Below are positions 35,145 through 36,985 of a stretch of 64,000 bases of DNA, piece after piece (the first letter of the stretch is position 1; each line of letters starts with the position of its first letter). The stretch covers positions 1-64,000 of the forward strand of contig JAAILG010000328.1 in assembly GCA_012026655.1 (NCBI GenBank), in the 5' to 3' direction. Origin of the DNA: Hydrolagus affinis (taxonomy: Eukaryota). Made by a program: the position numbers and the translations under genes. The notes under the pieces are model-generated. The model was not told the DNA's origin and ran no database searches. It worked only from the letters and a program-made list of their open reading frames with translations.

Positions 35145-35750
35145 TCTCATTCATGCCTTCATTATGTCCAGGCTCGATTACGCCTATGCCCTGCTTGTCG
35201 GCCTTCCCAACTCCTCCCTCCATAGGCTGCAGAACATCCAGAACTCTGTGGCCCACGTCCTCTACCACTCCAAGCTCTGTGATCCCCCATCTCCCTTATT
35301 CTCACCCGACTCCATTGGCGCCCCATCACCCAGAGGATTCAATTAAAGATCCTGGTCCTCCCCTTTAAAAGCCCTTCATGGCCTTTCCCCACATTACCTC
35401 AGGAACCTCCTAACCCCATATCAATCTTCCCTCTCCCTCCACTCAGCAGGCTCTGGCCTGCTCCATGTCCTCCAACCCACCATCGGCGGGCGAGCCTTCA
35501 GCCACTCTGCCCCCAACCTCTGGAATTTCATCCCGCAATCCCTCTGCCTCACCACCTCCCTAGCCTCCTTCCAAGTCCCGCTTCAAGACCCTCCTCTTCG
35601 ATGGTTCTATTGGTCACCCCCTAAACCCCCCTTTCCCTCCATACTCCCTGATCCCAACTCCAGCCCGGGTCTGAAACACTGACTGTGCAGCACCTTGGGA
35701 CGTTCTCCCAACGTGAAAGGCGCTATACAAATGTAATTATTTTGTTGTTG
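35145..35750 (+). mobile_element. 5'-truncated L2 LINE filling the 3' part of TGFBR1 intron 7
   Basis: Encodes SRLDYAYALLVGLPNSSLHRLQNIQNSVAHVL (L2 ORF2 C-terminal region); ends in the family tail gcaccttgggacgttctcccaacgtgaaaggcgctatacaaatgtaattattttgttgttg. Confidence 0.92.
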
Positions 35751-35753
35751 TAG

Positions 35754-35884
35754 GTATTCATGAAGATTATCAGCTGCCTTACTATGACCTAGTACCTTCA
35801 GATCCTTCGATTGAGGAAATGAGAAAAGTGGTGTGTGAACAGAAGCTGCGGCCAAACATTCCTAATCGGTGGCAGAGTTGTGAG
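35754..35884 (+). CDS. TGFBR1: TGFBR1 exon 8
   Basis: ttgttgttgtag acceptor, GAG|gtcagt donor; 131 nt. Encodes [44 protein letters not shown]. Confidence 0.97.
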
Positions 35885-36361
35885 GTCAGTACTTTGTGAA
35901 AAGTAGTTGATGGTTTGGTGTGTTGTGTGCTTGGATTCACATCCAGAAATTTATATATATATATATATGTGTGTTTATGTATATATTACATGTGTATATG
36001 TGTATTATATATACAAATAATATATTTAAAAAAGAAAGGCGGAGGGGAGATAGAAAATACTATAAATTAACCTCACCTTGCTGCCATTTTAGTCAGTGAA
36101 GTTTTCACTTCCTTTATTGTATGAAGACTTTGTTTTGAGCTGCAACCTCACTTAGAATCATGGAATTATACAGCACAGAAGAAGGCCATTCGACCCATCC
36201 TGTCTGTGCCGGCTCTTTGAAAAGAGCTGTCCAATTCTACTCCCCTGCATTCTCCCCTTTGCCCTGCAAACCTGTCCTTCCCAATTAACTATCTACTTCT
36301 CTCTTAAATGTTGTTATGGAATCGGCTTCAACTTCCATTTTATAATTGAGATAATTTATCA

Positions 36362-36985
36362 CACAACAACAAAATTACATTTATAGAGTGCCTTTCACAT
36401 CAGGAGGATGTCCCAAGGCGCTGAACAGTCAGGTCGGGACCCAAGCAAGGGAGAAGGGCAGGGTCGGGGGGAGGGGCGGGAGAGAGTTACGAAGGGAGGG
36501 AGAGAGAGAGTTAGAAGGGCAGCAGAAGGCACGGTTGAAGTGGAGGGTCTTGAGACCAGCTTTGAAGGAGGCAAGGGAGGGGGCGAGGCGAAGGGACTGT
36601 GGGATGGGGTTCCAGGGTGTGGGGGCAGAGAGGCTGAAAGCCCGTCCGCCGATGGTAGGGCATGCCGGGTGCGGGTCGTAGAGCAGACTGGAGCCCGCTG
36701 AATAGAGGAGGCAGGCAGGTTCATAGGGGGACAGCAAGTTGGAGAGGTGGGTGGTGGGGGGCGGCAAGGTCATGTATGGCCTTGAAGGTGAGGACGATGA
36801 TCTTGAATTTGATCCTCTGGGGGATGGGGAGCCAATAGACCTGGGCGAGGGTGGGAGTGATGTGGTTGGGAGCTTGGTGTGGGTGAGGACACGAGCTGCA
36901 GAGTTCTGAATGATCTGCAGCTTGTGAAGGGAAGAACCAGGAAGGCCAACGAGGATGGAGTTTCCAAAGTCAAGCCTTGGATGTG
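36362..36985 (-). mobile_element. 5'-truncated L2 LINE in TGFBR1 intron 8, antisense
   Basis: caacaacaaaattacatttatagagtgcctttcac is the reverse complement of the family tail; minus ORF PTIGGRAFSLSAPTPWNPIPQSLRLAPSLASFKAGLKTLHF. Confidence 0.92.

Follow-up and report, generated by a model that had tools for sequence, protein, structure and literature searches.

A LINE tail as the likely acceptor of TGFBR1 exon 8, an exon enclosed by two inverted LINE fragments

Exon 8 of TGFBR1 is enclosed by two LINE 3′ fragments that face each other tail to tail. On our reading, which we consider probable, the two fragments came together by chance, the tail of the upstream fragment serves as the acceptor signals of the exon, exon 8 is mostly included, and the pair itself is neutral.

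Results

The window, which is the whole stretch of 64 kb that was analyzed, contains exons 2–9 of TGFBR1 (Table 1), numbered after the nine-exon human gene. Together they form a single open frame of approximately 474 residues with GIKM at its end. The protein has an Activin-receptor ectodomain, a GS motif and a Ser/Thr kinase, and its best matches are TGFBR1, which identifies it as the TGFBR1 (ALK5) ortholog. The ectodomain is 87% identical to that of Callorhinchus milii TGFBR1 and 60–70% identical to those of sharks and rays, which makes a chimaera other than Callorhinchus the likely source, and its protein matches are all type I receptors (10 of 10). Exon 8 is single copy in its own genome and near-invariant; 42 of its 43 residues are the same as in the human TGFBR1 structures. 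Introns 7 and 8 measure 841 and 1261 nt, respectively. At exon 3, a tandem acceptor (CAG-AAG, 24775–24778) makes a one-residue variant possible. A gene of the collagen XV/XVIII type (endostatin exons and a collagen repeat exon) lies on the minus strand at 53539–54771 and 61943–62236 and is convergent with TGFBR1. Human COL15A1 lies upstream of TGFBR1 in tandem, and the gene order here may therefore differ from that in human.

Table 1. Positions of the features in the 64-kb window.
Feature	Position	Strand	Remarks
SINE-like copies	9619-9990, 13163-13481, 19989-20309, 39412-39760, 42388-42725, 48182-49555, 58985-59296		
TGFBR1 exon 2	17105-17350	+	
TGFBR1 exon 3	24775 or 24778-25017	+	
TGFBR1 exon 4	29402-29632	+	
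Competing antisense family tail, intron 4	31333-31410	-	partner for the acceptor-side tail: -87.9 vs -93.8 kcal/mol
TGFBR1 exon 5	32695-32862	+	
TGFBR1 exon 6	34292-34448	+	
TGFBR1 exon 7	34788-34912	+	AG/GT bounds, open frame
L2-like LINE 3′ fragment, 5′-truncated, sense	35147-35751	+	fills about 605 nt of intron 7 (841 nt); remnant of the ORF2 C-terminus, and 3′ tail
3′-tail stem-loop remnant, intron 7 element	35688-35725	+	folds, no better than shuffles (z -0.7)
Exon 8 acceptor region	35732-35753	+	TGTAA pentamer, (TTG)n tail as U-tract, AG 35752-35753
TGFBR1 exon 8	35754-35884	+	131 nt, AG/GT bounds, length not a multiple of 3
(TA)n microsatellite in the loop	35952-36025	strandless	
L2-like LINE 3′ fragment, 5′-truncated, antisense	36360-37001	-	intron 8; subfamily differs from the intron 7 copy
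TGFBR1 exon 9, coding part	37146-37271	+	open frame; out-of-frame TGA 37175-37177
Competing sense family tail, downstream of the stop	38765-38848	+	partner for the intron 8 tail: -95.1 kcal/mol

Self-BLAST revealed an inverted match between 35147–35748 (+) and 36363–37001 (−) with 66.8% identity over 645 columns (E 5e-74), and the loop between the arms measures 614 nt and holds exon 8. Tail-to-tail arms of about 600 bp around this exon had been described in the sequence-only reading, and the description held. The inner tails (35679–35748 and 36363–36432) are 83% complementary. Translation of the intron 8 arm gives the C-terminus of a LINE ORF2, whose identity to RT-domain proteins of Callorhinchus is 53%. 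The ORF2 C-terminus, the 5′ truncation, the tandem-repeat tail and the dispersed copies together mark 3′ fragments of a non-LTR retrotransposon. Pfam searches gave no match in either arm and an Rfam search of 34700–40500 gave none; in an atlas search the arm frame gave a weak RT-like match under the recognition bar.

The tail of the family typically ends in AAATGTAA followed by (TTG)n (judged from the 45 of 97 family copies that had a tail anchor). The TGTAA unit is present, and the tail stem-loop folds in 4 of 4 family tails, none of which beats its shuffles (0/4). We call the family, labeled L2 in the earlier reading, L2-like. A CR1-type LINE ORF2 end lies at 51373–51891, and the family is only 24% like it. 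Both labels, L2-like and CR1, are putative and based on motifs, the clade label in part. A further family copy lies on the minus strand at 17425–17673, 75 nt past the exon 2 donor, and is 80% like the intron 8 arm.

Other repeats were found in the window. Intron 5 holds a hairpin element (33244–33412) with 62-nt arms of 98% complementarity, and similar sequence lies at 12066–12321 and 62997–63124. A self-inverted structure of 650 nt (14558–15207, 67%) probably consists of two abutting SINEs; structures like it are also present on contig C2 (72074–72406 and 101654–102245). Copies of a younger SINE-like family of approximately 330 nt, up to 91% identical and in both orientations (Table 1), are better dsRNA formers than the LINE pair.

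The tail of the intron 7 element continues directly into the TAG that precedes exon 8. The closest upstream AG is 34 nt away, and in the AG-free stretch branch-like motifs occur only at −18 and −15, within or just past the TGTAA unit. The candidate branch A is predicted to be 35736 (−18). Since the approximately 600 bases 5′ of the acceptor AG are all element, the branch point and the U-tract are likely element-derived, as judged from the sequence; the last few bases could be host. That the acceptor is likely built from the element's own tail goes beyond the earlier reading, which had placed the pyrimidine tract in the stem. With 12 pyrimidines in 20 positions, this acceptor has the fewest among the eight of the gene.

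The tails of this LINE family are ready-made acceptors. The first YAG stands 8–25 nt past the TGTAA unit in 54 of 197 family tails, giving a usable AG, and exact matches to the tail–TAG junction number 261 genome-wide. The tail density is 1.9e-5 to 3.7e-5 per base and strand; multiplied by the introns of the genome, which we assume to number approximately 190,000, it gives an estimate of some tens of acceptors struck by family tails before selection. In the 30 of the 261 loci searched for other exons with tail acceptors, 22 open frames gave no Pfam match; the search also missed exon 8 as positive control and thus lacked power.

Other candidate signals lie nearby. Just 5′ of the insertion, 35108–35146 holds TTAAC/TTAAT motifs and a U-rich run, possibly the ancestral branch point and tract that the insertion displaced; the first AG after them is a candidate cryptic acceptor (35172) with an AG-free zone of 85 nt. 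The sense element contains an acceptor-like site at 35410–35450 (CTAAC at −34, 18 of 20 pyrimidines, CAG; site 35447) and an ATTAAA at 35342. Were blocking or editing to disable the main acceptor, a second AG at 35765, 12 nt inside exon 8, would give an in-frame deletion of four residues.

In a tree of 18 family copies of at least 350 nt, the arms fall into separate supported clades (99/98 and 95/96). Identity is 78–81% between each arm and its best matches, which lie elsewhere, and 69.6% between the two arms (18 copies); by shared derived states the two arms rank 144th of 153 pairs. The per-base duplex energy of an arm with its true partner ranks 7th of 15 family copies, which is no better than with unrelated copies. 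Both tails rank high in closeness to the family majority (4 and 5 of 90), and among 17 long copies this tracks body identity. The arms are likely independent chance insertions, as far as these comparisons of copies can tell. Local duplication or gene conversion as their origin was ruled out by the subfamily split and the low number of shared derived states. A search for signs of a selected structure (arms above background likeness, compensatory change, gene conversion) found none of the three.

Background frequencies were taken from 1,210,414 bases on nine long contigs, a sample of 0.1% of the genome in which long contigs are overrepresented. In this 1.21 Mb, 212 other copies of the family were counted, which extrapolates to approximately 190,000 genome-wide. 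An exon would have inverted family copies on each side, both within 500 nt, with a probability of 1.4e-5 (arms of at least 500 nt) or 2.7e-4 (arms of at least 300 nt), and approximately 3 to 50 exons bracketed by inverted family copies are expected by chance genome-wide. Inverted pairs of any family within 2 kb enclose 8.2%, 2.9% and 0.8% of positions for arms of at least 100, 200 and 300 nt, respectively. Among the 16 inverted pairs in the 1.21 Mb with arms of at least 300 nt and loops up to 3 kb, the studied pair has the longest alignment and the fourth-highest score; one other inverted pair in the sample has arms of at least 500 nt. Although the layout is unusual locally, the repeat density leads one to expect between a few and some tens of instances in a genome. 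With loops up to 1 kb, direct pairs outnumber inverted ones (inverted vs direct, 2 vs 10 for arms of at least 300 nt, p 0.04; 6 vs 18 for at least 200 nt, p 0.02), and with loops up to 2 kb the inverted pairs show no deficit (31 vs 33). Local duplication may account for the shortage at the shorter distance, which therefore carries no weight in our reading.

The two introns carry reverse-complementary arms that are predicted to pair stably. Over 647 columns, the duplex has 432 Watson–Crick pairs, 44 G-U pairs, 49 A-C mismatches, 69 other mismatches and 53 gaps; it is 74% paired with a predicted energy of −716 kcal/mol, and the longest perfect helix is 12 bp (20 bp when G-U is counted). In a folding series of the nascent chain, the branch region and U-tract become approximately 80% paired with the intron 8 copy once 36360–36440 exists. 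Opening the acceptor (−25 to +1) is predicted to cost 17.2 kcal/mol with the partner and 7.1 kcal/mol without it, as compared with 3.7–9.9 kcal/mol in six of the seven other acceptors, all six of which exon 8 exceeds; these values are for naked RNA at equilibrium. The predicted stem covers the U-tract as far as 35751, in agreement with the sequence-only reading. That reading had also proposed computing the identity and fold of the pair, which come out at 66.8% and, by equilibrium folding, a stable predicted duplex with the acceptor occluded.

A published criterion for editing substrates is a reverse match of at least 65% within 2 kb (PMC5625713), and the LINE pair barely exceeds it (66.8%, 614 nt apart, 49 A-C mismatches). 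The samples with heavy editing in that study reportedly include elephant shark brain. By analogy, intronic A-to-I editing of the LINE pair is likely.

Joining exon 7 to exon 9 (34912 to 37146) shifts the frame to a TGA at 37175–37177. As the earlier reading had it, this stop is reproduced from the exon frames and, lying in the last exon, should escape NMD. The product would exchange 85 native kinase residues (human 419–503, counted back on chain 1B6C_B) for 10. The lost segment includes helices G–I and the subdomain XI Arg (482), which pairs with the APE Glu. Because these would be lost, the skipped protein is likely to be misfolded and inactive, more so than to persist as a stable decoy. The 7–9 join was absent from all 60 database relatives, a weak test in that the relatives may lack the pair and the species itself is outside the set. 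In this set, 55 are normal past exon 7, one, a ray model, has a different terminal exon, and four lack the anchor and have normal ends; the largest cluster entered with the 15 of its 61 members among those listed. Predicted ray TGFBR1 isoforms (P0006 and P0007) diverge in their C-termini past exon 7 or exon 8. A literature search on TGFBR1 exon 8 skipping, judged by titles and the start of abstracts, gave no report of the 7–9 event.

Discussion

The probable history is that two LINE fragments of different subfamilies inserted independently and in opposite orientation on either side of exon 8, and that the tail of the upstream one now supplies the branch point and U-tract. In most cases exon definition would prevail, because transcription passes the acceptor 610 nt, and the donor 479 nt, ahead of the partner's first base, and exon 8 would then be present in nearly all transcripts. 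The duplex, 74% paired, would arise afterwards or incompletely and draw some intronic A-to-I editing. Only traces of skipping or circles would result, and their protein would likely be misfolded and inactive. In mice, complete loss of Tgfbr1 is lethal to the embryo (PMC7760568, PMC12222301), so heavy skipping of exon 8 should be costly. Against neutrality count the predicted pairing of approximately 80% at the branch region and U-tract, the predicted opening cost of 17.2 kcal/mol, the pyrimidine-poorest acceptor of the gene and the rarity of arms of at least 500 nt. In addition, an inverted pair that lies farther from its exon does cause skipping in TBXT, as PMC10901737 describes.

Skipping of the TBXT kind is unlikely here, though less so than the readings that follow. 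The stem would have to hide the acceptor fast enough for a measurable, NMD-escaping skip that lowers the receptor dose and is not selected. The occlusion predicted by folding, the weak acceptor, the short loop, the last-exon stop and the TBXT precedent, reported as proven by deletion (PMC10901737), all speak for it. However, the duplex is interrupted, the tails at 31333 and 38765 compete for the arms, and the 7–9 product was seen in 0 of the 60 relatives, none of them this species.

If a LINE tail did take the place of the branch point and U-tract in this essential kinase exon, the antisense LINE on its far side could further serve the splice site as an antisense strand built into the transcript. 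RNA pairing, responding to temperature, to helicases or to ADAR editing of the acceptor UAG, would then determine what proportion of the TGF-β receptor in chimaeras is truncated and NMD-proof. We consider this combined reading improbable.

We give little credence to the pair driving a circular RNA from the single 131-nt exon in the way that inverted MIRs act at ciRS-7. Old, diverged MIR pairs are reported to suffice for back-splicing (PMC7371899), and the arms here are long and close together. Yet the longest uninterrupted helix is 20 bp, as against 30–40 nt in that report. On the folding model the circle is disfavored, because the stem would bury the branch point and U-tract required for back-splicing and the circle has no endless frame, its rolling translation meeting stops.

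Just as little credence goes to a mildly protective duplex that masks the competing acceptor-like sites of the sense element (35447 with CTAAC at −34, and 35172). Ten YAG sites of intron 7 are pyrimidine-richer than the real acceptor, and at RABL5 pairing of the second Alu partly offsets repression (PMC11263572, PMC2533698). However, the tracts of the rival sites are rich in C, and none has as much U as the real acceptor (12); the same stem would hide the real acceptor, and the signal of selection is absent.

The dsRNA switch of the sequence-only reading, with helicase or ADAR control of the stem tuning a stable, kinase-truncated, dominant-negative receptor, is the least probable of all: the product would retain the ectodomain, membrane helix and GS domain, and natural truncated ALK4 isoforms are dominant negative, but the arms are independent insertions without co-evolution or visible selection for pairing, the repeat density explains the layout, and the loss of 85 kinase residues including Arg 482 makes misfolding likely and leaves a stable dominant-negative product unsupported. 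In human TGFBR1, dominant-negative alleles are described as missense or in-frame and truncating alleles as loss of function (PMC7760568, PMC12222301), an analogy that is partial, since the human truncating alleles are mostly NMD targets (PMC7760568).

As a layout in sequence, the pair is one among many such arrangements. The locus offers a clean natural case in which a near-invariant coding exon likely acquired its 3′ splice signals from a retrotransposon tail and was not broken by it. It is also a compact test case of how diverged flanking pairs can be and yet alter splicing. If regulated skipping were true, the TBXT mechanism would extend to LINEs, to cartilaginous fish and to a core TGF-β receptor.

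The closest known system is the skipping of TBXT exon 6 by an AluY–AluSx1 pair (PMC10901737), which shares retroelements in opposite orientation, independent insertions and a predicted loop-out of the exon. There, an Alu is reported to lie more than 500 bp from the exon and skipping is shown by deletion, whereas here the layout is known from sequence and folding. TGFBR1 also differs in that the arms are LINE ends of approximately 600 nt at 67%, one arm is itself the acceptor region, and the skip shifts the frame. Old, diverged inverted repeats likewise flank the exon in ciRS-7/CDR1as and the MIR-dependent circRNAs (PMC7371899); ciRS-7 is described as conserved across mammals and proven, whereas TGFBR1 has a 131-nt exon and a stem over the branch region. 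At RABL5 exon 3, an AluJo/AluSx dsRNA also places a retroelement beside a 3′ splice site, and pairing and editing alter the inclusion of this ancestrally constitutive exon (PMC2533698, PMC11263572). Both Alus are reported in the upstream intron there, whereas in TGFBR1 the partner lies across the exon.

Sense L2 elements near 3′ splice sites that are bound by MATR3 and PTBP1 (10.1101/297853) are pyrimidine-rich, as is the sense element of intron 7 (66% C+T). LINEs are described in that source as depleted near constitutive exons, whereas in TGFBR1 a LINE abuts a near-invariant coding exon. The density of PTB-like motifs, at 3.6 per 100 nt in the element and 3.4 in the rest of the intron, shows no excess. 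The fragments resemble UnaL2 and ZfL2 (PMC1636434, PMC4176376) in the ORF2 end, the putative 3′ stem-loop and the UGUAA unit. They differ in having one UGUAA followed by (UUG)n, with no GGAUA loop established, where UnaL2 and ZfL2 are described with [UGUAA]3. The layout at TGFBR1 exon 8 is of a known, TBXT-like kind, and the acceptor is the unusual part.
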